Shown here piece after piece: positions 4,260-51,469 of a DNA stretch of 64,000 nucleotides. The notes beneath the pieces are model-generated. The model saw nothing but the letters and a program-made list of their open reading frames with translations, was not told where the DNA came from and did no database searches. Source of the stretch: Amoebophrya sp. A120 (taxonomy: Eukaryota; Protista; Dinoflagellata); assembly GCA_905178155.1 (NCBI GenBank), contig CAJINV010000004.1, positions 5,992,828 through 6,056,827 of the forward strand. The letters are read 5' to 3'. Position numbers and translations under genes: made by a program. The first letter of the stretch is position 1. The number at the start of each line of letters is the position of its first letter.

Positions 4260-5042
4260 CTTTAATTAATCTGCTGGAATTCAAATTTTTTTTTGACCCA
4301 TGGCCATGTGATTCATCCGCGCGCTATTGTTAAAATTGATCCAGTTCTTGTACATCACTTGACGAAATTGACAAGTCATGTGAGTTTCGGTTCCGACACT
4401 GTGGTACGGCTCTTCCGCGGTCGTTGAAGAATAAGAAAGGTGGACGGCAAGCAGATCAGGATCGAACAAACTGCATGTTTGCAGATCTCCTCGCAGGTTT
4501 TCTGGCGGAAAAAGATATCAAATTCAAAACAAATTCTTGCTCACATGCGTGTACTAAAATCACGTCCACGAACTAACGAGGTGTGTAGTTTTTTTTTTTC
4601 ATATTCGTACCTTTCCATGTTTCTTTCTTCTGAAAAATTGCAGCAGAAAGACGGAACAAACGCGAAGCTAGAGCAAATTGTCTGGCGAAGCGACGAATAA
4701 CAAGCACCTAGCGGAAATCGAAAGTCATTGTGAACACCAAGCAGTCTCGTCCTGTTAGTACCTTTTGGTGCCCAGACTAGAGCGATGTCCTTCGCCACAC
4801 CGGTAACAGGCTTTTACTTTCGAAAGATGACGATCAGAGCGATCACCTATTTCCGGCGAATAAAATCCAGCCTAATCATCTTTTCTTTCGTCCCACACAG
4901 GGCTGGGCTCTTGTTCGCCTCGAAATCGAAAAATTAAAATTTTCAAAAACTCGTCTGATTGTCAACATCACGACTCGGGGTCCCGGTCCGGGTCTGCGAC
5001 AGGAATCGCGAAGCAGTAGTAGGTCGCATTGTTCCACCCCTA

Positions 5043-6748
5043 CTAGTCCTTCTTCAGTTCGAATTTTGGTTGCTGTACGACCCCGCTTTTGTCAATCGTG
5101 AAAATGTCGCAAGCATCGCCCGTGTAAATGTCGCGTTCGCCAGTCGAAGTCATCACGTCGCGGCCTGAACGAGAGAAAATTTTGGAAAAAATTAAAATTT
5201 ATATTTTTCACTTACGTGGTACTTGGGGACGAGAGGTCTTGTTTCAGGTGCAAGTGAAACTACAGCGTAGTTGTGTGTACGGGATAATCCAGACCTACTG
5301 GACTTTCAGGTGTATCTATAAGCATGGCTAGGTGGATATTGATTTCATCAAAATCCAGCACGGACGAACAATGTTGCATTGATGCAGAATCAGAAAAGCG
5401 TAGTTGTAAATCGCAAAGCGGCGTAGAAGTCGTAGTACAGAGGTCCAGCACTTCTGCGAGCTTGAGTGGCGCTTTCCTCTTCTTGTCCTCGGTGTAATTT
5501 CCCTGCTGTATGACGGCGTCGATTACTGGGTGGGCGAGTGAGCTTCCACTACCCGACGTCGTGTAGCTGGCGTGAAGAAATGATTGAAGCGGTTAAAGCG
5601 AAATACGCAATACAAATTTTCCGTAGTTGTACAACACGTACTGTACAAAATGCATGACAAATTATTCAAGCAAGTAGTTATACTCGACGCGCTCGAAGCT
5701 CCCAATGGCATCGTAGTGGTAGCACGCTCCCTTTCCCTCGCCGTCGGTTCCGGCGAGAATATTGAAGGTGTAGTAGGGAAAAAACCGCTTTCCGTAAAGC
5801 ACCGTGGAAAGCATCTGGGCGATTGCTGTGGTGGATGGCTCCTTCCGATGCTCGTGCTGGTACCTAATAGGAAAAAGACGCGCAAATTTTGGTTTTCCTT
5901 TCGCATTATTTTCTCTTCGATGGATTCGGACGGGTGGTTTTTCTGAACAGAGGACCACGCCTCCAATATGTAGATGAAATCATGCAGAGCAAAATTCATG
6001 CAATTCTGCCGAATAGCAATAGAGACACCGAAATAAACATCAAATCATCGCCCGACTTGGACTTACATTGTAATTCTGATTTTCAGCATTCGGTGCAACG
6101 TGATCGCATCTGCTTTCATTCCACAGCTCGTAATCACGCACTTCGATGTCAGTTGGGTCGTCTGTATTTTTTTTTGTTTTCGATGAAAGAAAGTTATGTT
6201 GAGAGGTGGGTCATTGTTGAGGTGATAATTGCATTCGAAACTGAAACTACACGAAGTTGTTCCACCATTTTTTGAGTACATCGTGGTCTCCTCCTCCTCG
6301 CAACATGCAACGACAACATGAGAAAATTTTGTTGAAGAAACCTTGGTATTATTTCTCGTGTGTATCGAGTATCCCTTGGAAAGTCGCTTATCGGAAATGA
6401 TGACGGCACCGTATCAAATGCAAAAGCGTCTGGGTCTGGAAGCATGTAACTTGTAATGCTAGTCCTCCACTCCTGTGAAATCTGTACTGCATGACTAAGA
6501 AAAAAAAGACGCCCTCTTTGGTCAAGCAAAAGCGCAGTTTCTCATGCGGACTGAGCAAGAGAGAGCGTTCTGAAAACTTGTCATGCTTGGTTGCATTGGC
6601 AAATATTTGAGTCATCCAGAGTTCTGCATCACAAGTTTCCAGACCCAGACATTTTTGCAGTTGATACACCGTCTTCGCACGCAATGCCAACTGCCGTCCC
6701 ACCATTGTCAGTGTATGGCGAAAACCGGTGCTCGATGGGTTGCGCCAT
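5043..6748 (-). CDS. PSMB1: Proteasome subunit beta type-1 (beta6/PRE7); multi-exon
   Basis: [86 protein letters not shown] follows the beta6 family throughout. Confidence 0.95.
6412..6666. mobile_element. Introner, family B, in proteasome gene
   Basis: TATCAAATGC..GCAGTTGATA; DR caccg/caccg; removal gives CEDG|AVIISDKR. Confidence 0.92.
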
Positions 6749-8322
6749 TTTCAGTGGAATTGTTTCTACTACGACTGCTAGTATTCTTCTATGAGAAAGA
6801 GTAAATGTTGTACACTTCTAGTACTTTGAAATTTGGGAAACTATCTCCCGCTTCGCCGCACTGAAGAAACTACAGAGCCATGAAGTTTTTGTTTTCTTTT
6901 TGTGTCGCGGAAAAATAAATTACAGCTTACATTGACATAAAAACGTAGGAGAGTTGTGTCGCTGGTGGCATCGTGGTACATGATCGTTTGTATGCAACAG
7001 AAGCAATGGAATTCAAGTGTGAGAGTGAGTACTGCTATTGCTTCTAGGACATCAATAGAAGCAACAAGAATCAATATCTTCAGTTCGTTCTTTTCCTTAG
7101 CGATGAGGCAAGAATGAATGTGCTGTCGCATCGTCCACATGGACTATCACAGCAAAATGAGTGGGATTGCCGGCAGTCGCGCCAAGTTCTACTTGCGAAA
7201 GGTTTTGATCTTGGAAGCAGGATGGATGTAACGCCAGTGGATGGGCGTATTGAAGTTGTTGAACGGTCGCGCCTCTTGCGCTGGCTTGCGACATTTCCTT
7301 TTCCTTCCTGATGTAGGGATGGAAATGGAATACTTAGCACAACTTACGACTGAGCTTGTTTCTGTTGAGCTTCAACATTGAACAGTTGGAACATCGACGC
7401 GAAAATCCTTTGACTGTGTGCTTGCTAATAGGCAAAAAATCTTTATAGTCGGAGCCTCGGTCTTCCACGTTATTATACAGTGTTTTAGTTTTTTGTTTGT
7501 ATGTTGCCGCCCCTTCTGTTGTTTAGTCGGACTTATGTACAGGCTCAGAAGGAGTCACAAAATAAATTGTTATAGCTGCTAAAGGAAGCTACTAATCATT
7601 CAGCGCAAACAAGTATGGTCGTGTAGCCGTCATTTTCGTCTTGTCTCTGCATGTGTACATTGATTTTGGCGAAACGACCGCACTTCCTGCTCTTCGTGTA
7701 CAGTTAATTCGAAAGTTTTTTTTCTAGCCAATCGTTCATGATATTACGGTGCGCAAGATATTGTCGTTCATACTGGTGGAATAAAGAAGTTTTGAGTTTT
7801 AGTATTATCTCATCAATAGCATGTTGGATTCTATTAAATTCATAGTACGATCCGCGTAGCATTCAGATGAAACAATAGAGAAACTTTATAAAGTGGACAA
7901 GCGTCGCTACATAAAGGGAAGAACGGGACAAATTATGGGGAGCGCTAAATGCTGATGAGCTTTTCAAGGTCAGCGTCGAAGCCACCGCCAGTCAAGTCAT
8001 ACATAAAAATTGCGTGGAAGGAAGTCTGAAGTTCTGTCCTGCTGTTCACTGAGTTCTATCCTGGAAAACGATGAAATCCAATACGAGTAGTTTCATAAGT
8101 CAAAAAAGTCATTGCAGCATTACTAGCTGCAGTGTCGAGTGTCACTTCGAAAGTTGTTCATATCATGTGTGATTCTTATCTATCATTCATCTTGCATATT
8201 TTTAGCGTTATTAATAGCACCAGCATGTTGTCGACACAACAAAAGTTAAGAAATGGTTTTCTGCAGTGGCGCTTCTCCTACATCACACCTCGCACCATTA
8301 CCATTTTCAACATCATGGCCTC

Positions 8323-11300
8323 CTACACCTCCACTACCTCATCCTCTCCGCTGAAAAGGGACGGCGAGGTGGAAGTACTATGTTCCGCAGTTCTACTACT
8401 CAAGCGGTCCAACTGCGATCTCCGTAGCAGGTCATTGGTCGTCGTTCCCTCCTCAGGCATCACTTCGTCGATAATATGCTCCTCGACCTCGAACTCGTAG
8501 CCCACCGCGGGAGGGACGGAAAAATTATCCTCCAAGTCGTCATCGTAGTGTCCCTGGTCGTCGCGGTCCGGAACTTCACTAAATGAAGATCCAGGACGAG
8601 GACTCGTCACAACATCCACATCGTCAACCTCAACATCTTCCGCATGATCATGAAGGTGTTGATTGCTGTTCCTCCTGTTGTTCATCGTAGCCGCCGGACC
8701 AGGACTACTTCTTCTATCATATGGCACGGAATTTTTCATCATGTAATAAGACGTGCCACCATGATCGTGTGCAGCATGTTCACTCGGATCTCCGAGTAGC
8801 AGCAAGCGGTGCATCTCTTCCTCGGCTTTTTCATCCCCATACGAGCGGAAGAATTCCCAACGGGACCTGCTCGCCTCGTCGGCTTGGTCCAGCAGTTTTT
8901 TCCGCCGCCCATACTCGGCTTCGTAGAAGTTCTGTTCTGGCTTGCGGTCTTGTTCTTCACGACTGGCGTTCTGGTTCTTGTGTCGTCCAACTGTTGTCGT
9001 CCCGTCAGCTTCGCCCCTGTCGTGGTCCTTTTCCTGCTTCTTATTTTCCTTCCTCGTGTGCGCTTCGATTTTTCCTCGAAACAGAGTCACGATGTGGGGC
9101 ATATGGAAGCGTCAGGTTTGAAATCGTCAAAGTTGAAGTAATCTGTAATGCATAAAATGCATGACCCGAGGTACGTGTGTTGCAGAGCAGGCAAGTGAGG
9201 CCGATTGTAAGCCTGTTTGGGGTTACAGCTCGAGCTGCTAAAGTAGCATGAGAAAATGACTCTTCTTTGCCTAAACAGCATGACAAACTGGATTTAGGGA
9301 CCACCGAGATTTGTCATGCGCCACTTGGAAACTGGGTTCCAACTGGCATCCATTTTATGCATGACAAATTATTTCAACTTTGTCGATTTCAACTCTGACA
9401 CATCCATAGGGCAACCAGCGCTCGTACACGTGTTTCGCGCCGAGGTGCAGCATATCAAATGCAAACATGTCTGGGTCTGGAAGAGTCATGCTGCTTTTGC
9501 ATGACACAGAAGGTCTGGGTCTGGGTCATGGAAGCTCTAGCGTCACAGGTTTCGAGAGGCTTCCGCAATGCCGAAACCGCGTGAGAAATGCGCCACTTTG
9601 GTGACAGAAACTAGTGGCAGTGGGCAGCTTTTGCCGCCTATGCATGAAAGATTTTTCTGTGTTGTGAAATGCGCAGCACAAGTTTGCATTCTTCCAGACC
9701 CAGACATATTTGCAATGTATACAGCACCGACCACCGCTCGCGCTGGTTTTGTCCCGCGGCGCTCTGGGCGCGCTGCAGTTTCGCCTTCGTGGCAGCGTCG
9801 TGGAGGTGGCGTGTGGATGCAGTGGCTTTGCCTGTGTCCTCTTTTCCGAGAAGTTATTACAGTGAAAAATGCCCCCACCCCCAAAGTTGCAATAATTTGT
9901 GATGCGAAGTCTCCAAATAAAAACTTTTATTTTGTCATGCGTGAAAGGAATATGAATCTTTGTGATGCAGAGTCTGGGCGTATATAGCATTGCTTGCATG
10001 ACAAGCGCCGATTTTGCTGGGATCTTTTGCAATACAAATTGTCGCTATTGTTCATCACGATTGGAAATCTGTGATGCTGCTAGATGCAAGAGGGCGAATG
10101 TTTCTCTTGGAAAGGTTTGCAATACAAATGCTCCCAAGTTCGGCGGTGGGGGCATTTTTCATTGTAATAGAAGTAGCTTTTTGTCTTCGCGGGAGAGCAC
10201 CCAGTCCTCTTCCTCGGGGGTCAGCGTCTTCCATGTGGAAAGAAAGTCGATAACGTCGTCCGGGCTGTCGGCCGCTGCTACGTCCACCGCCAGGGCGGCA
10301 GGGAAGTGCAGTGCGCGTTCGATCAGATGCACTAACCGCTGCTCGATGACGCGGCTGGGCAGCCCGTCGAGCGAGAATAACAGCGACGAGGCCGTCGAAC
10401 TGTGGCCAACATCTGCTTCGCTCTCGTCGCCGTAGTTGGGGGCCGAAGGGCCCGCGTTATTTCTGTAGTTTTTGTTCTTCCACAAGTTCTTTCGTAGAAA
10501 GGGTTTATTCCTGCTAGGACGATGAATTTCTTTCAGCTCTGCTTCCGCAAGCCCCCAGGTTATGTCATCGTCGGTAACCATCGGGGAGAGCCGGTGCCAG
10601 GTCCCAGAGCGCACCCGCTTCAGCGTCGCCAGCTCCTCCTGGCGCCGCTCCCACAGGCCCGTCGTCACGTGCTCCCACTGAAACGCGTTGGCTGCGGACT
10701 GCACGTAACGCAGGTAGGCCCCGAGCGGCGTGTAGTCGTGCAAAGCCACCACCGAATTGCGCAGCAGGGACAGAAGGGATATCGCCGCGAAGTCCTTGCC
10801 CGTTACGTGCGAGATGGAAGAGGAGAGCTTTGCGTATATTTCAAGTGGTCGTTTTTTATTCGTCCCGAACGTGCTCTCCTCTTGCTTCAGCAAAAAATCC
10901 AGCCGGTCATGCATCACCTTTACGTAGGCACCGATCACGGAGTGCGGGCCGGCGTCCGCGAAGTTGTGGTGCAGAAAGTTCGACAGCTCCAGTGTTTTCT
11001 TCTTCGCGGCAGCTTTGCGAGCTTCGGCTCTTGCTCTTCTTGCAGCAGCAGCATCAGCTCGGTTATCCACTACAGTAAATTTCCCGCACTTGTTGATGTA
11101 CAAAAAGCATCACAAATTTTGCCAACTTAGTAGAGCATGCCACTTGTCACGCTATCTAGGATGGAAGGCAAGCTTTGTCATGCAGAGACCGCATTTGTAT
11201 GTCTATGTCGTGTGCGGAAAATTTACTGTGGATATCTGTTCCTCCTCTTGTACTCGGTAGCGTTCCTGTTCAGCAAAATCGCTTTTGTGGATATCCTCTC

Positions 11301-14300
11301 TTCTTGCAAAAATGCTGCGTTCTTTATGCTCTTCATTTCCTCGTGCTGATGATCTTCCACATCGTTCTCGTTTTTTTTGTTCTTCTTCTTCTTGCTTCTC
11401 GCAACAATCCTGTATCGCTGTCCGTCGTCGCCAACAAACGAGGTATGGGTGTGTCAGGATCGAAATCGTCAAAGTTGAAATAATTTGCCATGCATAAAAT
11501 GGACGCCAGTTGCCACTCAGTTTCCAAATGGCGCATGACAAATTTCGGTGGTCCCTAAATCCCGTTTGTCATGCTGTTTAGGCAAAGAAGAATGGTTTTC
11601 TACATGCTACTTTAGCAGCTCGAGCTGTGAACCCAAATAGGCTTACAATCGGCCTCACTTGCCTGCTCTGCAACACACGTACCGCGGGTCATGCATTTTA
11701 TGCATTTGCAAATTATTATTATTTCAACTTTGACGATTTCAAACCTGACGCTTCCATACGAGGGCTCCTCCTCGTAGTGCTTCACTCCACCATACGCAAT
11801 GCGAAACCACGCCACCCACATCAACGCCAGTGCGACATTGTGCTTGGTGGCCCGCTATGCAATGCAAATATATCTGGGTCTGGAAGGTTGGAACTTGAAC
11901 TTGTAATGCTAGCTTTCCATACCTAGGAAATCTGTATTGTATAACCTACAACAGTCGCTGCAGCCTCTTTTGTACAATGAAAGCACGCAGTTTCTGATGC
12001 GGATTGCCTATGAGAAAGCGATCTGGAAAGTTGTCATGCTAGGTTGCATTCGGAACTGTTTCCATCATCCACATTTTAGCATCACAAGTTTCCAGACCCA
12101 GACGTATTTGCATTTGTGATACCCGCAAGATGCTGTACTTTGTCTCCACACACCCGTCGTCGCTGTGCGCCAGCGCTATGCTGTGCAAAAGTACTCGTAT
12201 TGCAATCATGTATTACAAATATCTTTCTTGAGCTAAATCCGCATCACAAATTTCATTTCTCATGCTGAGTAACTTTGTAATGCATTTCTACGAGTACGAG
12301 TACGATACTTTTGCAATGCATAAGCGCGGTGTGGTCCCGAAACGGGGCGGCCCGGCTGCAGTCCGGGACGTGAATCTGGGTGTAGGACTCCTTCCCAGCG
12401 ACGTCCAGAGTCTGAAGTGAGTGGCCCGCTCGCGCATCCATCTCCTCGGCCCGTCGTCCCGCCGCGGAGAGCTGCTGTGTTGAAGACAGATCGCGGCGGT
12501 AATTCAGGTCGAAAGGGTTCATGTGCCTTTTCATCAGAAACGAGGGGTACCTCGACGAGAATTTTCTATTGTGATGTTGCACGTCCGCTACTTTTTTCCG
12601 CACAACATACCGCACCAGGTGGTCCAACAAGTGTGCGCACCAGGGGGGCACGTGGCCGAGCGACGCTTCGTAGGGGGCCTTGCGCCACAGCAGGTGCGGA
12701 AAGTGCTCGCAGCCCAGCTTCCGTTCGATCACCCAGGAGGGAAAGCCCCGCCAGTGCGTGGCGGGGTTATGGAAGCGTCAGGTTTGAAATCGTCAAAGTT
12801 GAAATACTTTGTAATGCATAAAATGCGACACAAGAAGTGACTCTATTGCATAGGACCCACGGGAGGCAGATTATAGTCCTGTCAAGGGTCAAAAGTTGGA
12901 CTGCTAACTAGCATGACAGAAGGCAGCTCTTTTACCCTAAACCGCATGACAGACTCGCTTCCAGGACCGGGAAAATTTGTCATGCACCGACTACAAACTG
13001 TAGGTCTAACTGGTATCCGTTTTATGCATGGCAAATTATTTCAACTTTGTCGATTTCAACTCTGACACATCCATAGGGGTCCCCTTCGCGGTAAACCTGC
13101 AGCACATCGCCCTTTTTCACGTAGAGTTTGTGGCAGACTTCCCGCTGCCGGGTCGCGGCCTTCGTCCCAAGTACCTGGCGCAGGACCTTCGCGGAGGTGG
13201 AGGCACCGTCAAACAAGTAGAAGGGGTCGTGCCGGTATCCACAGAAAAAAAACCAATGCAAGCCACATCCATTTTTTGCATGGCAAACACATGACTTGAT
13301 ACGTGTTTTGCATGACAAATTGGATGTGGATGGGTTTTTTTCTGTGGATAGCCGGTTCCGGTACTCCTCTGCACCAACGGCCGCCTTCTCCGCTTCGCTG
13401 GCAAGCCAGGTGGCCTTTCTTCGGACCAAACGCCAACCGCCCTGGAAGGCGTGTTGCGTGGCTGCCCAGGACTTGTGAAGCCAATCCTCGTCTTGGTCTT
13501 TATTGTTCCCCCCGCCGGCGCCCTCCTCGGTGTTGTTCTTTCTGTCCCGCTCGGCCTTTTCCCTGCGCGCGATGCGGTCTATGCGGTGCGCGATGGCGAT
13601 GTATTTGGCCAGTTGGTGGCAGTGCTCTACCAGGTGCACCCCCTCCTGCCAGTCGCGGTATTCCAGGCTCCATCGCCCCACGACCTCGGGCCGCAGCATG
13701 GGTTCAATCATGGTCACCCAGACCTCGCGCGCCCACACCTCGGTCACACCCAAGTAGGCCAGGGTGAATTGGACCGAGCCACCGGTCCCGTCGGGAGACA
13801 GCCCCGCCTCGGGGTTCCGCACGGTGGGCAAAACGACCGTGGCGACCGCCCCCGTCCCGCTGTTTTGCGCAGCCTGCAACGACTGTGCGAGCGCGACGAG
13901 CCCGCTCGGCACTCGCTCAATCTTATTCCGCTTCTTCGCGTCGTAAGAAGCTTCTTCTTGGGAGGACTTCTGGTCCTCGGACTTGTAGTAGCGGTCGTGG
14001 TCGTGCAGGCGGCCGAAAACAGGTTGTTTTTCCAAGGGCAGGTCGTAGTCCTCCTCTTCGTCTAGCCGGAAGTCGTCGTTTTCTTTCCCGGCCGCAACCA
14101 GGCCCGGTTTGCCGCGGTCCAGGCCGTTGGTCGCGAGCCGTCCCTATCAAATGTAAAAATGTCTGGGTCTGGAAGAATGCAACTTGTCATGCTGAATCTG
14201 GAGCATGCAAAAATCTGTGTTGCATGATTACCAAAAGATGTCCACTTTTGACCAGTTCGACAGGGAGTTTCTCATGCAGGATAGGCACGATAGACACCTC

Positions 14301-17300
14301 ACAGCGTTTGTCATGCTAGGTGCTGCATTCCAGGCCTCATGGGTCATGGAAAAACTGCATCACAAATCTTGCATTCTTCCAGACCCAGACACTTTTGCAT
14401 TTGATAGTCCCGAGGGCGTGGGGTGCACGAAGTAGCCGGCGACTATCCAGGAAAAAACACCCATCCCCATCCATTTTTTGCATGGCAAATAGTTGACTTT
14501 ATGCATGTTTTGCATGACAAATTGGATGGGGATGAGTGTTTTTTTCCTGGATAGCGATGTCTTGCAGGAAAACGTCCTCCGAGGCCGTGCCCCACATCGC
14601 GCAGTCCCGGTAAAACTCTTCCGTTTGCGCATCGTGTTCGCGTTCCCCGGGCTCGCCAGATGTTGAACCGCTTGTCTGCGGCCCGCCACCGGGTGCTGTT
14701 GCATCCTGGCTGTAGTCCTGCCAATTCAGTGTGGGAAAGTCCTTTTCCATGGAGCACGACTGAGGGAGTAGACCTATGGACTGCAAAAGTATCGTACTCG
14801 TATAAATGCATTACAAATTTCATCAGCATGAGAAATAGAATTTGTAGTGCAGATTTACCTTAAGAGAAAAATTTGTAATGCATGATTGCAATACAAGTAC
14901 GATACTTTTGCACAGGATAAGACCCGCGGCGCGCCAAATCCAGTCGCCCAGGTCCATTGTGAAGCGGGGAACCGTATCAAATGTAAAAATGTCTGGGTCT
15001 GGAAGAATGCAACTTGTGATGCTGCATTTGGATTCCAAAAAAATCTGTATTGCATGAGTACCAAAGGGAATGCAATTTTTGCTCCGCTGAGAAGGCATTT
15101 TTCATGCGGAAAAGGCATCAGGAAACCCTCAGTAGAAAATCTGTATTGCTAGGATATGCATCACAGACATCATGGCTCATGCAAAACGTGCATGACAAGT
15201 GTCAGAATCTTCCAGACCCAGACACTTTTACATTTGATAAACCGCAAACGCCAAAATTCGCGGCAGCCCGCGCCGCATCAGGGGGTACAAACCAAGGTAA
15301 TCGACGTGCTCCGCCGAGTAGACGCGATTCCAGAGGGGCTGCAGCTCTTTGCGCAGGGGCTCCGTCTCCTGCCCCGCCAGAACGTCCTGCTCCAAAAGGC
15401 GGCCCAGCGAACCGTGCGTGAGCGGAAGCTTGGCCCCGACCGCGGGGCTGGACCGTACCTGGTAGGAAGAAAATCTATTACTTTCGCCGTCAATGTTGTT
15501 CTGTTCCGGACTAACCTCTTGCTCTTGATCTTCACTATCGGAAATAACGTCATCGTCGTGGTCTTTCTCTTTGCCCTGCTTGTCCTGCTTCATTTTTTTC
15601 GAGTCGAGTCGTGGCACCGCTTTTCCTGCGTGCGTGGTCAGCTGCTCGTACACATTTGATTTGGTCCATACGGGTTCTCCGCTTTGCAACCCGGGAACGA
15701 CATCCGTGCCTTCGAGCAGACCCCGCACGTACGTTTCTTTGCGGGTCGGGGCATAGTCGTGATGTGCTGGAGGACCTCTTCCCATTGATGTAGGTTCAAG
15801 CGCAACCACGACTATCCACAGTAAATCTAATTTCCCGCTGCACACGGGCAAATTCTGTGGCTTCCACATGTTGACAAGCACAAGCTCTTCCTTGAACCTC
15901 TCCAGCATGACCAATTGCTTTTTCTAAGTTGTTGAAATTTCAATTTGCATTTTTGTACATGTGCGGGAAATTTGTATTGCATATGATCTGTCATCGACGT
16001 CACCTCCTGCTGCAATTGCGCGCCAAAATTGGTGCGCTCGTGTTCGCTTTCCACGAGGGAGTCGACTCCGCGGCGAAAGGCGTCGAAGTAGCCCCCGCTG
16101 TACGCGGCTGTCGGCTTATGGTCCACATCCGCAACTTTGCTGAAGTAGAACCACCCGTCCTTGGCGCGGTCTTCTGGCCCCAGCATGCGCTCCCGGCGGA
16201 GACTCGCGCGGGCCATGACCTGCGCGATAGAAAGCCCCTTTTCCCACGGGGCAAATTCGTCGACATCTTCGCCGTAAAAAGTCTCGGGGTCCAGCATACC
16301 CTTCACTTTGTAAATATGGTCTGTCATTCCAAGAAGGGTTGCTCGGTCCTCGTAGTTGTGATCGACTGGTGATGAACCAAAATTTGCCTTCGTTCTAGTA
16401 CTAGTACTCACCTTCGCAGTACTTCTTCTAGTTGCACTTGATGTTGCAGCTGCCCTTACGACCCTGCTGCTGCTCTCGCTCTCCATAAAGGACGTCGAGC
16501 TGCTCGCCTCACTTGTACTTCTAGAGGTCGAAGTTGTGCTAGCCGTGGGCGCAGCGCCGTTCTGGTCATAAAGCTGTTGCAGTGGTCTCTGGAATTCCGC
16601 GTCGGCCTTTCGGTACCGAGCTACGCTCGCGTCGACATCGACCACATGGCTGCCCGGGGTACTGACCGGCGTGCCGTAATACAGGGGCGTAAACTCCAGC
16701 TCCTCGGCCCGATCGGGGATGCGGTCCGAACGCCCCAGTCGGTGCAGCTGGTGCGCGCCCCGGGCCGCGTCGGTGTATGCATTGCAAAAGCATCGCAGTC
16801 GCACTACTCGCATGAATTGCATCACAAATTTTGTCTTCAAACAATTTGTCATGCTAGTTTAGGTAGAAGGTTGGATTTGTCATGCACGAATGCATTTACT
16901 TTTGCAGAGGATACGGTGCGCGCAGCGACGATGGGGAAGGGCAGCCCCCCGGCGGGAAAGCGGACGCCGAACATGCCAGTGTCCCGGGTCCGGTCCACCG
17001 CACTCGGGTATCGTACGAAAAAAGTGTTTCACTGTGATTGATTTGCAAGATCTGCATCACAAGTTTGTTACATGACACAGAAAATTTGCCATGCGCGCTT
17101 CCCAAGGGAAAACACGGCTGAAGCTCCAACGTCTTGCAGGTGTAGCAAGACAAATAGTTCTGTGTTCCATTTTCTGCATCACAAGTTCACAGGAAACAGT
17201 TTTTTCGTGCNNNNNNNNNNNNNNNNNNNNNNNNNNNNNNNNNNNNNNNNNNNNNNNNNNNNNNNNNNNNNNNNNNNNNNNNNNNNNNNNNNNNNNNNNN

Positions 17301-20300
17301 NNNNNNNNNNGATATCGGCGGCAGCTTCAACAAAGCGCGGTGCCCGGATACCGACTCGTAGGCGTAATTGGTCTGGATATCCGCCGCCAGCCGTATGGGG
17401 TTCTCAAATGTGGTGTTCTCAGCTGGTGTCGCATGCATTTGATGTCATGCAGATGAACTACCTTAAGCTTAAGCCGCCAGGTAATCAAGCCGCTTCGCAT
17501 GACAAATTTACGAAGGGCTAATCAGCACCTAAAAAAATATGTCCCAAATCTGTGATGCGAAAGCAGCAACATCTGCAGCAAGCTTGTCCCTTTGACTGTT
17601 GCTGTGCTTGAATTACAAATTCATGTAACAATTGAGAATGTAACATTTGAGAGTCGCTGCATAAGGCGCACCAGCGGCGTCGAGCGATTGAGCCCCTCCG
17701 TTTCCTCTTCGAACCACGCGTTGGCGGACGCGGCCGACCCCTCCTTGCCGGCGGCCCCCTCCAGGGCATCCCACATGGCACGGCGCTCCTCCTGCTTGCG
17801 CTCCTTCTCTTCCTGTTCCGCGAAGATTTTCTCGATTTCGCGGGAGGCGAGCTGGCCGCGCGCGGTCCTGTCCATCGGGTTCTGCCGCGGCGCCGCGTAT
17901 GCATTGCAAAAGTATCGTACTCGAACTCGTATAAATGCATTACAAATTTCCTCAGCATGAGAAATAAAATTCGTAATGCAGATTTGCCTTGGAGACAAGA
18001 TTTGTAATGCAAGACTTGCATTTGAATTTGTACAAGTACGAGTACGATACTTTTGCACAGGATACCGCGCTGCGCATCCCGAACCGGTCCGCAAACAGGG
18101 CGGCGACCGTATCGCGAGGAAAATTGCCCCCACCCCCAAAGTTGCAAAAATTTGTGATGCGAAGTTTCCAAATGAAAACTTTTGAGACGGGTACGTGCTG
18201 AGGCCCAGACTTTTAATCGCGATGGCACGCTGAAGGTTACTATTTTTGCGTCGAGCATACCGTCGGGGAAAACAGGGGGCCCCCGCCTCCCGCCCTTTCG
18301 CCCGCTGGGTATCCTCCCCACAGGGGGGCCCCCGTCCCCGGCTCCCGCCCTCCCGCCCGCTGGGTAGCCTCCCCACCGGGGGGCCCCCGCCTCCCGGCCC
18401 GCCCGCAGGGGGGCCCCCGCCGGCCTCTCTCTTTCACTGGCCACGCGCAGGGGGCCCCCGCCTNNNNNNNNNNNNNNNNNNNNNNNNNNNNNNNNNNNNN
18501 NNNNNNNNNNNNNNNNNNNNNNNNNNNNNNNNNNNNNNNNNNNNNNNNNNNNNNNNNNNNNNNNNNNNNNNNNNNNNNNNNNNNNNNNNNNNNNNNNNNN
18601 NNNNNNNNNNNNNNNNNNNNNNNNNNNNNNNNNNNNNNNNNNNNNNNNNNNNNNNNNNNNNNNNNNNNNNNNNNNNNNNNNNNNNNNNNNNNNNNNNNNN
18701 NNNNNNNNNNNNNNNNNNNNNNNNNNNNNNNNNNNNNNNNNNNNNNNNNNNNNNNNNNNNNNNNNNNNNNNNNNNNNNNNNNNNNNNNNNNNNNNNNNNN
18801 NNNNNNNNNNNNNNNNNNNNNNNNNNNNNNNNNNNNNNNNNNNNNNNNNNNNNNNNNNNNNNNNNNNNNNNNNNNNNNNNNNNNNNNNNNNNNNNNNNNN
18901 NNNNNNNNNNNNNNNNNNNNNNNNNNNNNNNNNNNNNNNNNNNNNNNNNNNNNNNNNNNNNNNNNNNNNNNNNNNNNNNNNNNNNNNNNNNNNNNNNNNN
19001 NNNNNNNNNNNNNNNNNNNNNNNNNNNNNNNNNNNNNNNNNNNNNNNNNNNNNNNNNNNNNNNNNNNNNNNNNNNNNNNNNNNNNNNNNNNNNNNTGCCC
19101 GCGGGCCTCAGCACGGACCTAACCAATGCGGGGCTTTTGTTGAACACAGCTATTGCGCCCGCGGGCCTCACCACCGACCTAACCATTGCGCCGCTTGCTT
19201 CTGTTGAGCGCCTGGCCGGTCCCCTCGTTGGTGACTGTTCTGGGGGTGGTCCGCTCGTCCGCCCGAGGGGCCGCAACCGCAGGGCCCGAACCGTAAGGCA
19301 GAGTGGCGGGGAACAAGGCCCACCACACTGGGGCGCCCGCGCGCGGCGGCGGCGAACGGGCCCCAAAGCGTCCCCATCAATAGTGTTGTGGCGCGGGCCG
19401 AAGGGAAAGAGAGGCGCAGCGGCAATACTGCCCGCGCGCGCCATCACATTGACACCCGGAAGCGGAGCCGTGATACTCGGGCGGGCGTGCCGAGGAAGTT
19501 CGCGACGGCGGTGGTGGTTGTGGGTTGGTTGTCAAGTTGTCTCGTTGGCAATGCGTCAGTTTTCAAGTTGGTTGCCCATACGCCAGAACGACAACACAAC
19601 TGACAACCAACAACAACCAACCGAAGAGGAGACACAGCCGACATGCGCATGTCCATTCTCAGCGCGACACAGTGGACACATCCCCCACATGCGCAGCAGC
19701 CAGCGCGCGCGCGCTGGAAATACTGCCCACATGCGCCAGCGCAGTCCCGCGTGGAAGTTGGGCAACCGGGCGCGCCGTGGTTCGCACAACAAAACTGCCG
19801 AAGTTGAGCGATTAGCACAAGTGGAATCGAAACGCGGCCCATACCGCCCTGGTTCGGCGCAAAATGTAGGGATGGTTGCACGGCGAGTTGCGCCGTGCAA
19901 CTTGCCGTGCAACTCGGGCCATACCATCGCGATTCGCAACGCAAAACGTGCAAAAGATGCACGAGTTGCACAAGTTTCCGGGAAATCTCGGAAGGGCCAT
20001 ACCATCCTGGTTCTGCGCGAAATGTTGCGATAGTTGCACGGCGAGTTGCACCGTGCAACTCGCCGTGCAACTCGGCCGTACCGTGGTGATTTGCAACAAA
20101 AACGTGCAAAAGTTGCACGAGTTGCACAAGTTCCCGGGAAATCTCGGAAGGCGAAAATTCCGGGACCCCGGAAAGAGATGAAGAACAGCAAAGAGAGCGG
20201 ATTGGAAATCCGTGCTGCCACGAATTCCCAATCCGCATGGTATGGTGGGCTTTGGCCAGTAGAATTGCTATGTTTCCATAGCCTAAAAAAAGGCGCTCCA

Positions 20301-23300
20301 CGAGGGCACCACGCCCGGGTATATACGCAAGGTTTGACCCCAATCAGGGTGCTGCGATGGATTTTTCTGGGCCTCAGCGCGTACCGTTCTGGAACTTTTT
20401 GTCATGCATGAAAGGAGTATGAATCTTTCTGATGCAGATTCTAGGCGTGTTTCGCATCGCTTGCATGACAGACGCCGCTCTTGCTGGGATCTTTTGCAAT
20501 GCAAATTTTTGCTATTCACGATCGGAAATCTGTGATGCTGGTAGATGCAAGAGGGCGAATGTTTCATTGATTTGAAAAGGTCTGCAATACAAATGCTTTC
20601 AAGTTCGGGGGTGGGGGCATTTTTCATTGTAATAGACCGTCTGACTCCACAGCAACCGGTGAATCCCCTGGTCCACCGAGGTCGGGTTGACCCCGGCGTA
20701 CAGAAAGTACTCACTCCCGCCCGTTCGCGCCAAATAGGCCCGCTCGGAAACAAGCAACTTCTCCGCCTCGATGCTACTCGCGTCACGACCCGAAACTACT
20801 CCGTTCTGGTCCTCCTGCTGCGCCAGCTCTTCTTCACGGCTCATCTTTACGTTGGCAAACTTGCTGGAGGCACCTCCGCCCCCGGTCGGGCTGTCCGCAA
20901 ACTCGGGGTGATACACCTGCAGGAGCGGTCGCACGATGGTGCCGCCCTCCTCGAGAACCGTGGTGGTGGAACCCGCGAAGGTGGGGTCAGTCGCGACGGC
21001 TTGGTTCAACTCCCGCGCAATCTCCTTCCAATTGGTGTTCACACGATAGTATCCTGTGCAAAAGTATCGTACTCGTACTAATTGCTTTTATGCATTACAA
21101 ATCTTTTTCTGAAGGCAAATCCGCATTACAAATTTTTTTTTGTAATGCTGAGCTAATTTGTGTTGCAATTTATACTAGCACGGTGCTTTTGCACAGGATA
21201 GATAGCGCACGTGATACTCGCCGCCACGGGAGGAGGCTCCAGCCTGCGCCGCAAAAAGCTTCAGTAGGGATCCGGCCTCCTTTTGCGCTAGGTCGGCGTC
21301 GGCCTGCAGTCGCCTGGCCGTCTTCAGCCACGCCGCGCGCTCCTGCTCCACGTTGCGGCCCCCTAGCAGCTCCTGCGATTCGGTATCTTCCTCCACATCA
21401 AAGTCGCTTACCTGGTAGTAGTACCTCTTTGATGTATCGCTTGATGAAGGTGATGTACTTTCGTCTAGCCCTAGCAATTCCTGCTCTTGGTCTGATGTTT
21501 CAGAAGAAGTTCCGTCACCAGGATTTGATAATGATGATCTCGTCGCTGTTGTGCCCATGCCCTTTCGTCTACTACTAGAAGTCTCTTTCACAAGGGAGTA
21601 GTCCAGCTCTGCGGCATCGCGGTGCCACCGCTCTCGGATCTTGAAGCCCAGATACAGCACGTTGTGCAAGTAGAGCCTTTCCCCGCTGGTCGAGATCGTG
21701 TCTAATTCGATCGCAAATGGATCTTCGTCCCCGTCTTCATCAAACAAGGTCGTGGTCCCGTCTTCTTGCGCTTGATATCCGAAATTGGTGGCCTCATCTT
21801 CATCTTCGATCGGTCGTACGGCTCCACTGCGGGGGCCCTTGCTTGAAGATGTTGTTGCGAAGGGGCCGGAGTCGTCGGATTTCTTATTCGTTCCCATTTT
21901 TCCGTACAACACGGGCAGCAAAGTCCACGCTGAGGCGCCCGCGGAACTTATGTACTCGGGCCACTTCACGGCGGTGCACCATTCGTTACTGCGACCGCGA
22001 CACGACGTGATGTCCTCGTCCGGAAGGTTTTTAAAGGCTTTTTGCAGCTCTTCATCGCGTTCGTCTACTTCGGCCCCCTGGTTCTTGTGGATGTCATAAT
22101 TCTGCAGCTCGGCGACCAGTTCTTGCAGCTCAAGGTTTATCCGCTGCTGCTCTTCGCTGAAATACCTGGCCTCGCCCTTGGTAAACCAGTTCCAATTTTT
22201 CGTCCTGGAATTATACAAGGGACGGCCAGGCCCAGAATAAACCTTCTCCTTGCCGTCCCGCATGGCTTGGAGCTTCCTTCGGGTTTCCGCCTCCTCCCGT
22301 TTTTGCGCTTCGTTTGTAACTGCGGTCCACGCGCGCAGAAACCCCAGGCTGCTGATCGACGCTCGGAGGCCGCCCCCGGCCAACGCGATACCCGCCGGAA
22401 GCTGGTGCCACGGCTCGGTAAACCGCCCGGCGTAGTTTTCCAGCGCCTCGGGAAACTTGCGCCAATTCACGGCAAGAAACTTGCGCGCAGGAGCAGTTCG
22501 TGCTGGCGCTGGGGGTTCTTTGCTTGATATTCTTGTAGTTGCCTCTCCTTTTTTCGTTGCTTTCGTCGTCCCAACTTTACTTTCTGTCGTGGTCGTCGCG
22601 CTTGAAGATGAAGTTGAAGACGCAAGCGTCGCTTTCGTTGTTTCAGATTTTTTGGCGTAGAAGTTGCGGTTGCTCTCGTGTCGGTCAGCACCCCCTACTA
22701 TTCCGGCCTTTATTTCATTTTCAACGCGATCGCGAGCGGTGATTTCATCAGCCTTTTATAGAGACGAAAAAGGTGATCTTCAGCAGTGTTCTTATCCCTA
22801 AAGGAATTCGCAGCATACCGTCGGGATTTGCCCTGTTTTTGGCGCCAACGCAGGCGCTGCAGCTTTTATGGTCGCGCCTGCGTAGGAGTGCTGTTGCCTT
22901 CCCTGGTGGGTTTGTTTTTTCACGCGGCCCAGGCGTCTTTCTAGAGGAACCAACAGGCACGCTAGCACCCCGGCGAGCCTAGACATAGACTAAAGAGGCC
23001 CCCCCCACTGCGCAGATCGACGCGCCCCGCGGGCACTCACAACACACCCACCCGGCTCAGGCGGGCATCTTTTCCGCGGCCCCGAGCCCGACGCACTCGC
23101 GACCCAAAAAAGGCCGCAAGCCGGCTCGCGCAGACTTGGTGCGCAGGCCCCTCGAGACCTCTTGGAACTCTTCAAGCGCGCCCCCATCTCTCACCCGCCG
23201 CCCCAATCACTCACCGTTGGCACCGGACCGCTTTCGCGGCCGTGGTGAACGCACTGGCAGAAGACCCGAAAAGCTTCCCGCCTGATGTTCGTTTAAACGC

Positions 23301-26300
23301 TCAAAAAAGATAGATAAGAACGCCTACTGCAACGACCTGTGATTGATGTTCCCGCTCTCGAAGACTGCTGCTCTTATCCTCCACGCCGTGCATAGATAAG
23401 AGCACGTTTGTAACGACCAGAAATTGGTGGCTGGCACGAAGCAGAATGACATCTTCTGCGCCAGATGTTCCCGCTCTCGCAAAAATGCTGTTCTTATCCT
23501 CCAAATGGGGCATCAGCTCGCGCCCAGGCGCGCGAACTTGGACGCAGTGGCCGGCGGTTATTCTGTCAGCGCGCAGCGCGTTCCCTGGCGCATGCGCTGG
23601 GGCTGCGCTAAGCACGAAAGCGCGACCCTCTGGAGGATGCGCGGCGAAGGCTTTGGATAGCCCTGGGCGGTCTCGCTTTTGTTGGCCTCAGACACGCCAG
23701 GCCTCGCCTAGAATGAAAAAAACTCACGAATCGCGACGGTATGGCGCGATTTCTCTTAGGGATAAGAACACGCGGGAAGATCACCTTTTTCATCTCTATA
23801 CCTTTATTTCATTTTCAACGCGATCGCGAGCGGTGATTTCATCAGCATTATCACCAACAACTCGTCCGTTGTAGTTGTGGTAGTTGCGGCGGTACCAGGG
23901 CGTACTCAGTACGGCAGGAATGGAGTGGTACATGCGGTACTGCAACTGAGGATTGTAGCAGTAGTGCAAGGCCGAGGCCTGAAAACGCACGTGCGCGGGC
24001 GGGTGGTCGGGGATCGCGCTCGAACCCAGCTTGGAGGTCACCAAATCCGCATACGCCAAAGCAGCCTCGCTGTCTTGCCGGGACACCGAGACATACTTCC
24101 CGGTGGTGGACATATCAAATGTAAAAATGTCCGGGTCTGGAAGAATCCGAAATTTGTTATGCTGTTTTTGCATGACACAGAATGTCTGTCATGGAAGCCC
24201 TAGCATCACAGATTTTCAGAGGCCTTCATGATGCCTATTTCGCATGACAAATGCCCTCGACGCGTAGCACAAACCGGACTCCCCTTGCTGGTCATGCAAT
24301 ACAGAATTTTTTAGAGTCCAAAGTTAGCATCACAAGTTCCAACCTTCCAGACCCAGACATTTTTACATTTGATAGGACATGGGATCCCGCAAAAATTGCG
24401 TCAGGTGGTGGTCACTGTTCGGAATGTCCTCCACGTCATACTTCATTGGGCCAGTCTTGCTGGTCGCAGTCGGGTCGTAAGGATAAAAGCCACTTCTAGT
24501 TCTACCTCGTTCTAGCTTAGGCTCACTATCTCTACTCTGAAGCACGACATCATCGTCCGGCACAGATGAGGAAGTTGACGGGGTCGTCGTGTGGTCTTCC
24601 TCTACTAGCGCACGTCGTTCTTCTCCCACGAGGCCCCGCCCAACAAGCTGCGACGACAGGCTCTGGCGGGCAACCTCGTGCTCTTCCAGGTCCTCGACGG
24701 TGTCTGGGTACCGCACCGCGTACACCTCGTTGAACCGGTTTTCCATCGCGGACCGGGCGATCGTCTTGCAGTAACACTGCATCATGTCAGCCCCGTCGCT
24801 CTCGTCGGATCCCGGCGGCCAGGCGGCCATCAGCGTCCCCACCCAGGCGGCACTCATGCTGTACACCGTTCCGTGGTGGCAGGGGTTCTGGCCCTCTTCC
24901 TCGTGCTGCTCCAGGTAGTCAAACGGCTCCCCGATGGCCGCCGGCGTTCCCAGGCTGTGTGCGGCTTGCCGCTTCTCCAGGATCTTCGCAATGCTCAGCC
25001 GCTCCTGTACAACATCTTCGGGTACTTCGGATGCTACTCTTGATGACTTCTGGCCGTTTGGACCTTGTATTTCATCGACTTGGTCTTGTTCTGTAGACCA
25101 CGGCATTAGCCACACCTTTCCCGGCAATCGCAGTTCGCCCGGGCGCGTCAGAAACAGCCCAGCAGGGTCGTTCATTTTTCTCGTTGTACTCGTCGCAGCT
25201 CCTCGACCGGGGTCCACCACAAAGATTTCGCCGAATAGCGTGCTTAGACTAGGCATCGCTTTCAGCATCTGGTGGTTGGACGCAGGAGCGGGGCCGTTCC
25301 ATCCTGTGCGCTGAATGGCCTCTTGCGCGTTCGGCGTGGTTTTTGTGTCTTTCCAGCCTCGGGGCGCGACGAAGTAGGCGAGCTCGCGCCCGTAGGTCTG
25401 GATGACGAACCCCCCATAGGGCTCTGCGTCGGACCGCAGCTCGTGGCCGGGCGTCAGCGTGTCATACACGGTCTTGTCGAGCAACTTCGCGCGGCAGTCG
25501 TGATACAGCTCGCACCACCCGGTGTGGTCCCAAAAATTTAAAAAGTTGCAACCCTTCCGCAATCTCTTCGCGTATTTCATCTTGCTGGTCTTCCCTTCGA
25601 CGATATTGTTCTCGGTGTTCTTCATCTTCTCGTCAGTCTCCGTGGCAGCCACTGTACTAGGAACGTACACGTCCACGTCGGATGCGGTGACGGCCTCGAG
25701 GGTCGTGAACTTTTGTGTCCGATCTAAATCCGTCACGTAGTTCTCCACCAGTTCATTTGCTGAGGTCGACGTAGAGGCACTAAATCCATCAAGACCTTCG
25801 TGAACATCTTCATGTGCTGCAGCTGGAGGATCAGCCTTACGTAGTTGACCGACGTCAATATCATCTTCCCTGCTGCTCCGGTTTGTTTTCATCCTTTTCC
25901 CCCCCGCCCCCTTCGCCAGCAGTGCAGCGGGTTCCAAATAGTCCGCCTCGTCGCCGGCCTGCAGACAACGCCGCTTGCATTCTTCCAGGTCTTTCGCGGT
26001 GGAGGCAGCTGCGGTTTCAATGGTGCCCCACGCGGTGCTTCCCGTCACCGAATGCACCACCCCCTGGGACCAGCGCTTGACCCCGTCCCACATGTCTCCC
26101 TCGGGCACGTACATGTCCACTTTGTCGCACCGCGCGGGCCCCTCGGACAGAAAGGCCATGACAGGGTGCACCACCACCTCGTACCTCTCCGCAAGCTCGG
26201 GGTCGTTCTCGGTCGGATAAGGAGATGAAGGGGGTTTATGATCTTGCCGATCCTCTTCATTCTTGTCCACATCTTGTTTTCTTTTGGTGTCCTCTCCTGT

Positions 26301-27194
26301 GGCATTTTTTTCATCCGTCTCATCGCTCTCTTCTTCACCACCGCCACCTCCACCGAAAGGATTCCACCACTGACCTGTTTCAGCTCTCCTCGCCTCAACT
26401 GCCTCGGCCATCACTACTGCAGGTGTGCTGGTCGTCAGCGTCGTCGTGACCAACGCTGCAAGAAGCATCGCGCAGGACGACGTGGTCGAGGAGAGTAGAG
26501 CTGTGATGCCCGAGATCATGATCGCCAGGACGAGTACAAAGAAATTTCTTTTTCGGGGCCTTTTTTGTGTGGCGAGGGCAGTACTATGTGTATGATCTTC
26601 AGACCGCATCCACAGGAGCACGTGGTTTGTCCGTTCTATTTTCTCGCACGAATAGACGGCTTTCTTGTGCACGACGGGGACTGGCACTAGGTCTTTGCCT
26701 TTATCTGCGTCGACGTGAAGAGAATGCGTGGAGGATGGGCGATTTACATTTATGAAAAAAAGCAGATGTCCCCGCACTACCATCCCATTCCGTGGTTTTT
26801 CTGTGGACAATGCTGGAAATCTTCGTTTTCTTTTTGTCGTGGACGCTTCGCCGCAGCGGTGGTGTTCAAGGTCATCTTCACGCCCACAAGCACCACGACG
26901 GTCACGGCTGAAGAAAATCTTGCGGAGCCTCATCTTCGTCATGCTTCTGGTTCTGGTTCTCTTCTGCCACGACGAGGGCGTCTCATCTTCTAAGAAAGAA
27001 CTTCGACGACGTGTGCATCTCCACGTCGTGACGCCGGTTGTGGACCACATGAAGTTGTACGCGCGGCGTCGAGTTCTTAAAGCAACGTGAAAGCAAGAAG
27101 ATGAAGTTGTGCCACAAGAATCAGGTCCGCATGCGCTTTGTTCATCTACCACGTTCTTACTACTTAACATCATCCCAGCACCATCATTTGTCAT
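8323..27194 (-). CDS. Very large (~3,500 aa) lysophospholipase/cPLA2-like protein with a PAN/apple-like motif, split by 22 introners; start codon uncertain
   Basis: Motifs GIALAGGGLRAS..LGFLRA, EYISSAGASAW, LEFTPLYYG, YLFDGA; hydrophobic leader near 26400-26545; CKRRC..CNFLNF..WCELY. Span minus all elements (+5 bp each) is 10,734 nt, a multiple of 3; junctions spot-checked are open. Confidence 0.7.
9102..9408. mobile_element. Introner, family C
   Basis: TATGGAAGCGTCAGGTTTGAAATCG..CGATTTCAACTCTGACACATCCATA; DR gggca/gggca. Confidence 0.92.
9453..9721. mobile_element. Introner, family B
   Basis: Family B TIR; DR cagca/cagca; frame restored. Confidence 0.9.
9855..10169. mobile_element. Introner, family D
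   Basis: TATTACAGTGAAAAATGCCCCCACC..GGTGGGGGCATTTTTCATTGTAATA; DR gaagt/gaagt. Confidence 0.92.
11064..11234. mobile_element. Introner, family E
   Basis: TATCCAC..AAATTTCCCG / GGAAAATTTACTGTGGATA; DR tcggt/tctgt; frame restored. Confidence 0.88.
11444..11758. mobile_element. Introner, family C (opposite orientation to 9102)
   Basis: Reverse complement of the 9102 copy; DR cgagg/cgagg. Confidence 0.92.
11856..12121. mobile_element. Introner, family B
   Basis: TCTGGGTCTGGAAG / TTCCAGACCCAGAC TIR; DR cccgc/cccgc. Confidence 0.88.
12177..12322. mobile_element. Introner, family A
   Basis: TGCAAAAGTA / TACTTTTGCA TIR; DR agcgc/agcgc. Confidence 0.9.
12768..13075. mobile_element. Introner, family C
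   Basis: Family C TIR; DR ggggt/ggggt. Confidence 0.92.
13236..13350. mobile_element. Introner, family H (short)
   Basis: TATCCACAGAAAAAAAACC..GGTTTTTTTCTGTGGATA; DR gccgg/gccgg. Confidence 0.9.
14145..14406. mobile_element. Introner, family B
   Basis: Family B TIR; DR gtccc/gtccc. Confidence 0.92.
14444..14553. mobile_element. Introner, family H
   Basis: TATCCAGGAAAAAACAC..GTGTTTTTTTCCTGGATA; DR gcgac/gcgat. Confidence 0.9.
14775..14919. mobile_element. Introner, family A
   Basis: Family A TIR; DR agacc/agacc. Confidence 0.9.
14975..15239. mobile_element. Introner, family B
   Basis: Family B TIR; DR aaccg/aaccg. Confidence 0.92.
15813..15983. mobile_element. Introner, family E (DR diverged)
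   Basis: Family E termini; flanks acgac/tgatc no longer match, but removing element+5 restores frame. Confidence 0.8.
16776..16913. mobile_element. Introner, family A
   Basis: Family A TIR; DR cggtg/cggtg. Confidence 0.9.
17009..17314. mobile_element. Introner, family I, spanning a 100-N gap
   Basis: TATCGTACGAAAAAAGTGTTTC..GAAACAGTTTTTTCGTGC[N]GATA; DR tcggg/tcggc. Confidence 0.75.
17394..17663. mobile_element. Introner, family J
   Basis: TATGGGGTTCTCAAATGT..ACATTTGAGAGTCGCTGCATA; DR agccg/aggcg. Confidence 0.75.
17898..18064. mobile_element. Introner, family A
   Basis: Family A TIR; DR ccgcg/ccgcg. Confidence 0.92.
18184..20391. mobile_element. Non-autonomous DNA transposon (MULE/hAT-like) nested in introner; contains N gap 18464-19095
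   Basis: ~26-bp TIR GAGACGGGTACGTGCTGAGGCCCAGA / TCTGGGCCTCAGCGCGTACCGTTCTG; 8-bp TSD aaactttt/gaactttt; internal GC-rich repeats. Confidence 0.8.
19839..20150. repeat. Two ~157-bp tandem copies rich in GTTGCAC/GTGCAAC
   Basis: ccatacc..tggttc..gttgcacggcgagttgc..cgggaaatctcggaagg occurs twice. Confidence 0.8.
21050..21200. mobile_element. Introner, family A
   Basis: TATCCTGTGCAAAAG / CTTTTGCACAGGATA; DR gatag/gatag. Confidence 0.92.
22757..23800. mobile_element. 1-kb TAT..ATA element acting as an intron
   Basis: TIR TATAGAGAYGAAAAAGGTGATCTTC..GTGTTCTTATCCCTAA (~55 bp); DR ccttt/ccttt; ORF continuous after removal. Confidence 0.88.
24113..24374. mobile_element. Introner, family B
   Basis: Family B TIR; DR ggaca/ggaca. 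Confidence 0.92.
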
Positions 27195-49990: not shown

Positions 49991-50452
49991 GATTCGCGCC
50001 GTCCTTCGCGGTCTTTCCCCGCCGGCACAGCGTCGATTTCGGGCACCGCGGCAAACCGGCGCACATTTTGGAAGATTTTGGAACGCACTCGAGTGCAGGG
50101 CATCGCGGCAAACCGGCGCGCATTCTCTCGATTCTCAAGGCCTCGGGTGGTTGTGCGGACGCCTCCTGTTTCTGTGTGGTTGTCGCATCTCGATCCTGCT
50201 GCTGGTTGTCAACGCGCCGCTTTGACAACCAGCAACACGCTGACAACTTGGAAGAACCAAGCCGAAACAAGAAATGTGCGCCGGTTTGCCGGTGCCGGTG
50301 CCCGTGCCCACCGCCAACGCGGCAAGGGCAAGGACCCCTAAGGCGGGAGCCTCTGGCGCAAGGGCGCACCCGCCCCGGGCTGGCCGGGTGTCCGTCGGGG
50401 AGGGAGTGAAACCCCGCGACGCCGGCGCAGTCCGAGGGGCAAGCACGAATAT

Positions 50453-51205: not shown

Positions 51206-51469
51206 AAAAAACAAGAGAAATCGAAATCACGATGCTATGAGTATTTATTTTTCGTCATTCTAAACACAAGAAAACCACGCTGCCGTCGTGTTTCGCTGGT
51301 TTGGGTCTCAGAGCGTCAGGGTCTCTATTTTTTTCCGCTTGCCAATGTGGTTTAGTCGCAAGGACAGTGGACCAATAACGAAACTCACAGCCAATGCTTG
51401 ATCTGTAGTTCTCGCTCGGCTCGCAGAGCGGACAAGAGGAAAAGGAATAAAGCTCTTGCATGTACTTGT

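Follow-up and report, generated by a model that had tools for sequence, protein, structure and literature searches.

Introners of the dinoflagellate Amoebophrya sp. A120 have been described as carrying TAT followed by about 7 nucleotides (nt) and AAA, with 8-20-nt terminal inverted repeats (TIRs) and 3-5-nt direct repeats, in many families, and one class of A120 genes has non-canonical introns only (Farhat et al., 2021; PMC7789003). A120 introners make tens of introns per gene and are diverse DNA transposons with TIRs (Gozashti et al., 2025; PMC12130899). We analysed a 64,000-nt stretch of the A120 genome (contig CAJINV010000004.1, positions 5,992,828 to 6,056,827 of the forward strand; hereafter the window), in which an earlier sequence-only reading had proposed one gene of ~3,500 amino acids (aa) hidden behind 22 introners at positions 8323-27194. 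The 22 elements in this span fit the kind already described: they share with the published set the host genome, TAT inverted repeats, short direct repeats, families and non-GT-AG removal (eight of the 22 being without splicing evidence), and the locus resembles the published cases in having such introns only, in its unannotatable, fast-evolving host gene and in the failure of standard predictors. The locus differs in that the border position is unknown or variable in Farhat et al. (2021) and is fixed at one junction here. The introns examined in that study were limited to 40-1,000 nt, a range that leaves out elements 19 and 21, and its gene model contains 1,478 of the 3,577 aa found here. The accessible part of Gozashti et al. 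(2025) gives no cut register.

Two further systems bear comparison. The non-conventional introns of Euglena have, as here, paired ends, slidable direct repeats and fixed spacers with the shorter one on the 5' side, but the Euglena motifs, CAG/CTG with a purine preference, have 3/5-nt spacers where the TAT/ATA ends here have 1/4, and the lineage is unrelated; the Euglena spacers were established by mutagenesis, ours by one junction (PMC12501133). In SOS splicing of animals, inverted-repeat elements likewise leave the mRNA without GU-AG ends, but the process is imprecise and indel-prone and requires AKAP17A, CAAP1 and RTCB, whereas the joints listed here are exact; the main text of that paper, as far as accessible, does not mention Amoebophrya (PMC12779559).

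When the 22 elements are removed, each with one copy of its 5-nt direct repeat (element+5), the span of 18,872 nt loses 8,138 nt and 10,734 nt remain, equal to 3,578 codons. The 23 exons (8323..27194, minus strand) read from an ATG at 27194 to a TAG at 8323, the sole stop being the last codon, and encode 3,577 aa from the first ATG; the coding span is supported by the frame reconstruction, by shift controls and by a codon model. The number of inserts, the element+5 rule, the sum divisible by 3 and the single putative frame claimed from sequence were thereby reproduced, and splicing and translation in silico, proposed then as a check, gave no internal stop or frameshift. We read the locus as one long A120 gene with 22 introner interruptions, 12 of them seen removed as element+5 in likely-RNA contigs and the others likely removed too, the cut likely lying in every case 1 nt ahead of TAT and 4 nt past ATA; we give this reading a probability of about 78%. 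Control removals of element+0, 1, 3, 4, 6 or 7 nt left 62-67 stops each. Removals of element+2 and +8 were also open (same frame), so that DNA alone fixes the removed length modulo 3 only. When +4, +5 or +6 was picked at random for each element, an open frame was obtained in 0 of 3,000 trials, by which a chance open frame was rejected, and all 44 tests of a 1-nt shift at one single element ended in a premature stop. An artefact of assembly gaps was rejected as well, since the gaps of 100 N and 632 N sit inside elements 16 and 19, respectively, within the removed DNA, and drop out of the length sum. In a codon model trained on residues 2100-3577, each of the nine 5' exons had a positive score in its predicted frame and a negative one in both alternative frames. 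Codons 1-100 scored negative (non-coding) in this model, so the true start codon may be a later ATG than that at 27194.

All 22 elements begin with TAT and end with ATA, and their lengths range from 110 to 2,525 nt. The flanking 5-nt direct repeats are perfect at 17 elements, carry one mismatch at four and have decayed, with four mismatches, at element 14. An A-stretch in the inverted repeats is seen in most elements and is absent in, for example, elements 1, 5, 8 and 17. Eighteen pairs among the 22 elements align over at least 80 nt at 70-90% identity. The ends are predicted to pair in all 21 testable elements, at -12 to -38 kcal/mol (values without a shuffled control); element 14 combines decayed repeats with the weakest predicted end pairing (-12.0 kcal/mol), yet it is removed.

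Evidence for removal comes mainly from contigs of runs X1 and X8, which are RNA by guess, not on record as RNA, and represent one sample. The joint listings are incomplete, so that the 12 of 22 joints counted here, among those listed, are a minimum. A 4,580-nt X1 contig skips exactly element+5 at elements 1-11, with 0 differing letters in the listed pieces. These are element 1 (9102..9408, 307 nt, repeat GGGCA, 312 nt skipped; one family with 5 and 8), element 2 (9453..9721, 269 nt, repeat CAGCA, 274 skipped), element 3 (9855..10169, 315 nt, repeat GAAGT, 320 skipped; family with 19), element 4 (11064..11234, 171 nt, repeats TCGGT/TCTGT, 176 skipped), element 5 (11444..11758, 315 nt, 320 skipped; orientation opposite to 1 and 8), element 6 (11856..12121, 266 nt, 271 skipped), element 7 (12177..12322, 146 nt, 151 skipped; family with 12, 15, 18 and 20), element 8 (12768..13075, 308 nt, 313 skipped), element 9 (13236..13350, 115 nt, 120 skipped), element 10 (14145..14406, 262 nt, 267 skipped; family with 13 and 22) and element 11 (14444..14553, 110 nt, repeats GCGAC/GCGAT, 115 skipped). 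A second X1 contig bridges element 14 (15813..15983, 171 nt, decayed repeats ACGAC/TGATC) from 15808 to 15985, which makes the intron 15809-15984. Joints 10 and 11 were seen again in X8, in which one piece begins at 15985. Exact element+5 joins are thus present at no fewer than 12 of the 22 elements (1-11 and 14), and 12 of the 12 listed joints are exact, in contigs, which drop rare variants. None of these 12 has GT-AG ends in the sense of the minus-strand gene, and elements 1 and 5, which belong to the same family but are oppositely oriented, are each removed. Contigs of run X2 run from exon into element and have a depth of 0 at joint 10 as well as at joint 11; they also cover the DNA on either side of element 14, with no differing letters. 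The raw RNA runs X5, X6 and X7 gave 17, 3 and 0 reads, all partial fits and mostly on element copies, and no exon joint was seen in run X9. Elements without a joint among those listed are likely removed too. As a side observation, an X1 contig extends about 800 nt beyond the stop codon (window about 7516-8322, the lower coordinate assuming colinearity), likely a 3' untranslated region.

A search with exon 20 matched a single protein, 100% identical, from Amoebophrya sp. A120: CAD7946117.1 / GSA120T00000993001, of 1,478 aa. It corresponds to residues 2100-3577 of the reconstructed frame (8323..15994, minus strand, upper coordinate approximate, placed by protein identity), and the public model therefore splices elements 1-14. 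As the public model lacks the first 2,099 residues of the frame, it represents just 41% of the whole, which is a new observation. Elements 12 (14775..14919, 145 nt) and 13 (14975..15239, 265 nt) are spliced in this model; there is no joint for element 12 among those listed, and an X1 piece ends at the boundary of element 13 (15240). Further 5' in the gene, splicing is predicted from the frame only, at element 15 (16776..16913, 138 nt), element 16 (17009..17314), element 17 (17394..17663, 270 nt, repeats AGCCG/AGGCG), element 18 (17898..18064, 167 nt), element 19 (18110..20634, 2,525 nt including 632 N), element 20 (21050..21200, 151 nt), element 21 (22757..23800, 1,044 nt, with 72-nt inverted arms) and element 22 (24113..24374, 262 nt). 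The 100-N gap of element 16 lies within its right inverted repeat; since the sequences on the two sides of the gap join into a nearly complete inverted repeat, it probably conceals almost nothing. Nested in element 19 is an insertion of about 2.2 kb (about 18185-20390), which has inverted ends of ~20 nt itself and is another mobile element sheltered by the introner; a contig of X1 that derives from a different copy of the element-19 family skips from 18176 to 20393. At element 21 an exact 45-nt exon duplication (15 codons) stands on either side (22707-22751 and 23801-23845) and may be linked to the insertion; owing to it, element+5 (3,577 aa) and element+50 (3,562 aa) are both in frame.

Perfect repeats permit the cut to slide over six registers, and nine of the 12 listed joints are fully slidable and uninformative. 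Element 11 rules out one of the six registers, element 4 narrows them to three, and a single one remains at element 14: read along the RNA, the intron has its first position 1 nt ahead of TAT and its last 4 nt beyond ATA. This register, (1,4), is the only one common to all 12 joints listed, and CAD7946117.1 matches with 0 differences under (1,4) only, against 1-3 differences under the other five. The cut register observed at element 14 is new, and it is likely valid for all 22 elements, a generalisation from one decisive junction. Under (1,4) the donors of the 22 elements are CT (9), GT (6), TT (4) and AT (3), always followed by A, and the acceptors vary, AG occurring once in 22, at element 21. 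In a literature survey by title and abstract opening, no paper was found that fixes the A120 cut position; figures 3, S19 and S23 of Farhat et al. (2021) may show part of it. Table S4 of the same report gives nine of nine predominant A120 motifs as beginning N-T, and nine of nine motifs of A25 as beginning TT with repeats starting TTA (PMC7789003). Both A120 and A25 would then have UA at +2/+3, aligner effects being possible.

Several points weigh against a single gene with a fixed cut. The RNA status of X1 and X8 is guessed, they are a single sample, and the public model may have been built on them, in which case the X1 joints and the public-model match do not count as independent. The public model begins at residue 2100 and no record spans the whole gene; among the joints listed, 10 of the 22 elements have no RNA joint, and for elements 15-22 there is none in any source. 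The register hangs on the single junction at element 14, the splice sites are called variable in Farhat et al. (2021), and an ordinary spliceosome would sit poorly with G at donor +1 in only six of 22, with an AG acceptor in one of 22 and with U1 small nuclear RNA, which was not found in A120 (PMC7789003). The start of the public model at M2100, the lack of listed joints at elements 15-22 and the X1 coverage of the 5' exons by short pieces only would also suit two or more genes or transcripts, that is, the expressed 1,478-aa 3' gene as annotated plus a separate or silent 5' part. We hold this to be rather improbable, given that the halves are separated by neither a stop nor intergenic space, that eight of eight 5' junctions hold one frame under the same removal rule, that coding bias is present in the 5' exons, and that X1 record 3 reaches 16156, 5' of the annotated start, with other X1 pieces on 16322-16606, 21542-21835 and 25909-26077. 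Contigs are unable to show a single transcript, and their low or absent cover of the 5' exons was given no weight. Removal at the DNA level by programmed excision, or joined contigs from a strain with empty sites, would fit with X1 not being recorded as RNA; this is very improbable in view of listed exon pieces without differing letters, of X2, which lacks the two comparable joined forms and whose contigs continue across exon-element borders, and of the RNA-seq support reported for A120 introns (Farhat et al., 2021; PMC7789003). The register itself could be variable, the cut sliding within the repeats as Farhat et al. (2021) describe and element 14 being a special case. The nine fully slidable joints and the published legends, which call the border position variable or unknown and give positions 1-5 in Figures 3 and S23 (PMC7789003), speak for such sliding. 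We consider it unlikely: elements 4, 11 and 14 all permit (1,4) with one joined form each, and slidable repeats alone give an aligner apparent variability, as shown for Euglena (PMC12501133).

Given one gene with element+5 removal, the following course of events may be proposed. The anatomy of the elements is plain in the sequence; their transposition would have been a miniature inverted-repeat transposable element (MITE)-like insertion, several families arriving as DNA transposons in both orientations and each duplicating 5 exon nt. The element ends would pair in the pre-mRNA, as predicted, and removal of element+5 would restore the exon exactly (at least 12 of 22 in contigs, 14 of 22 in the public model). 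The cut position would be measured from the stem, not from the repeats or AG, as element 14 suggests and as the 11 other joints allow. With slightly better than even odds, the catalyst would be a relaxed spliceosome rather than a separate nuclease-ligase. The canonical donor consensus carries U and A at +2/+3, and a relaxed spliceosome is favoured because (1,4) gives every donor N-U-A, with the canonical letters at these positions, because the A120 motifs begin N-T and the A25 motifs TT with TTA repeats, and because most of the spliceosome is present in A120, where U2, U4, U5 and U6 and nearly all of the spliceosomal proteins are reported, U1 being the part not found (Farhat et al., 2021; PMC7789003). 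Examined as U2-type introns (GT/GC donor plus AG acceptor under (1,4)), only one of the 22, element 21, conforms. The full form of this idea is a ruler mechanism for the tens of thousands of transposon-born introns of A120, with a U1-less spliceosome reading only UA at +2/+3, the donor 1 nt before the stem and the acceptor 4 nt after it, no demand on acceptor sequence, no need for intact repeats and either orientation accepted; it is tentative, and we put it a little short of an even chance. As the 5 nt removed in total equal the length of the target duplication, each new insertion would under such a ruler be silent from birth. The same gene and elements could instead be served by a spliceosome-independent, hairpin-triggered cut-and-ligate process, SOS-splicing-like or Euglena-like and here precise. 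Neither a donor G nor an acceptor AG is shared, removal occurs in either orientation and U1 was not detected (PMC7789003), all of which such a process would accommodate; paired transposon ends trigger SOS splicing, with RTCB sealing the RNA (PMC12779559), and in Euglena introns a paired motif is flanked by spacers of set length, 3 nt and 5 nt (PMC12501133). On the other hand, SOS splicing uses multiple cut sites and produces indels (PMC12779559), whereas 12 of 12 joints listed here from contigs, which drop rare variants, are exact; donor positions +2/+3 are U and A in the register found, and nearly all spliceosomal proteins and the four RNAs named above are present in A120 (PMC7789003), so we regard a cut-and-ligate process as doubtful, if still a serious contender beside the ruler-like spliceosome.

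If true, the fixed 1/4 rule would be a simple gene-finding rule for A120, would set SOS- or Euglena-like removal apart from a relaxed spliceosome, and is directly testable on existing RNA-seq via non-slidable introners. The gene itself is an ordinary, somewhat dense case of a published phenomenon, by which the annotation gains 2,099 residues; what is added is the extended gene model and a testable cut register.

The broader claims made from sequence fared unevenly. One gene behind introners stands as far as one frame and clean removal go (frame, X1 joints and public protein); the absence of any conventional intron holds by origin of the elements but not strictly by their end letters, element 21 having GT…AG in the inferred register and element 12 being slidable to GT…AG. 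That standard predictors would miss the gene is true and was already stated by Farhat et al. (2021; PMC7789003), whose gene model, even though RNA-guided, contains residues 2100-3577 only. The statement that modest per-intron failure would abolish expression was too strong: removal efficiencies of 99, 95 and 90% at each element would leave 81, 34 and 11% full-length mRNA. Retention of any of 21 of the 22 elements gives an early stop, element 9 being the sole one whose retention leaves the frame open, and the retention cost is a real but ordinary constraint, with the same arithmetic as in any 22-intron gene. The element density, 2.05 per kb, is close to the mean of 1.42 for the A120 genome (Farhat et al., 2021; PMC7789003), with 15.2 elements expected versus 22 (Poisson P=0.06), and an unusual intron density was rejected at this P value. 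Exon 1 is element-free over 2.8 kb and the other 7.9 kb carries all 22 elements (largest-gap P about 0.03).

The product is likely a membrane-anchored or secreted protein of about 3,300-3,600 aa without an identified family. One hydrophobic segment, residues 215-239 in exon 1 (24375..27194, minus strand, 2.8 kb), suggests a signal or anchor. No Pfam family reached the cut-off in 15 exon pieces or in the 1,478-aa model, and there was no PDB sequence match. No homologue was found for exon 3 (21201..22751, minus strand) among proteins of 904-2,580 aa or for exon 1 residues 330-940 among proteins of 1,646-4,700 aa, and exon 3 against 1.84 billion representatives returned only an unnamed 205-aa fragment of the same sequence. 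The exon 1, 3 and 20 queries thus had no homologue outside A120, in searches that left out near-length targets, so that short models of the 5' half are possible. Leads from the Atlas were weak: exon 3 was linked to lysophospholipase/patatin (0.85) and exon 1 to PAN (0.76-0.78, without a Pfam hit), both under the reliable range. GxSxG is the catalytic serine motif of lysophospholipase/cPLA2/patatin proteins; it has 0 matches in the 3,577 aa, in which only GGGLRA, at residue 1168 in exon 3, was seen. An AlphaFold2 model of about residues 1135-1450, built from the single sequence, carried no usable information (predicted local distance difference test, pLDDT, 41.5). No profile match was obtained at the cut-off for lysophospholipase/cPLA2/patatin or for PAN/apple. 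A weak guess would be that the parasite secretes the protein or exposes it at its surface and that the protein includes a degenerate phospholipase-like region.

Elsewhere in the window, 15 more TAT…ATA candidates with 5-nt repeats lie nearby, at 219-6666 and 30090-63798; four of these neighbouring candidates (at 450, 30090, 52697 and 57405) have one repeat mismatch and are potential register tests. Tandem arrays of GC-rich 114-nt and 19-20-nt units occupy window positions 49129-51219.

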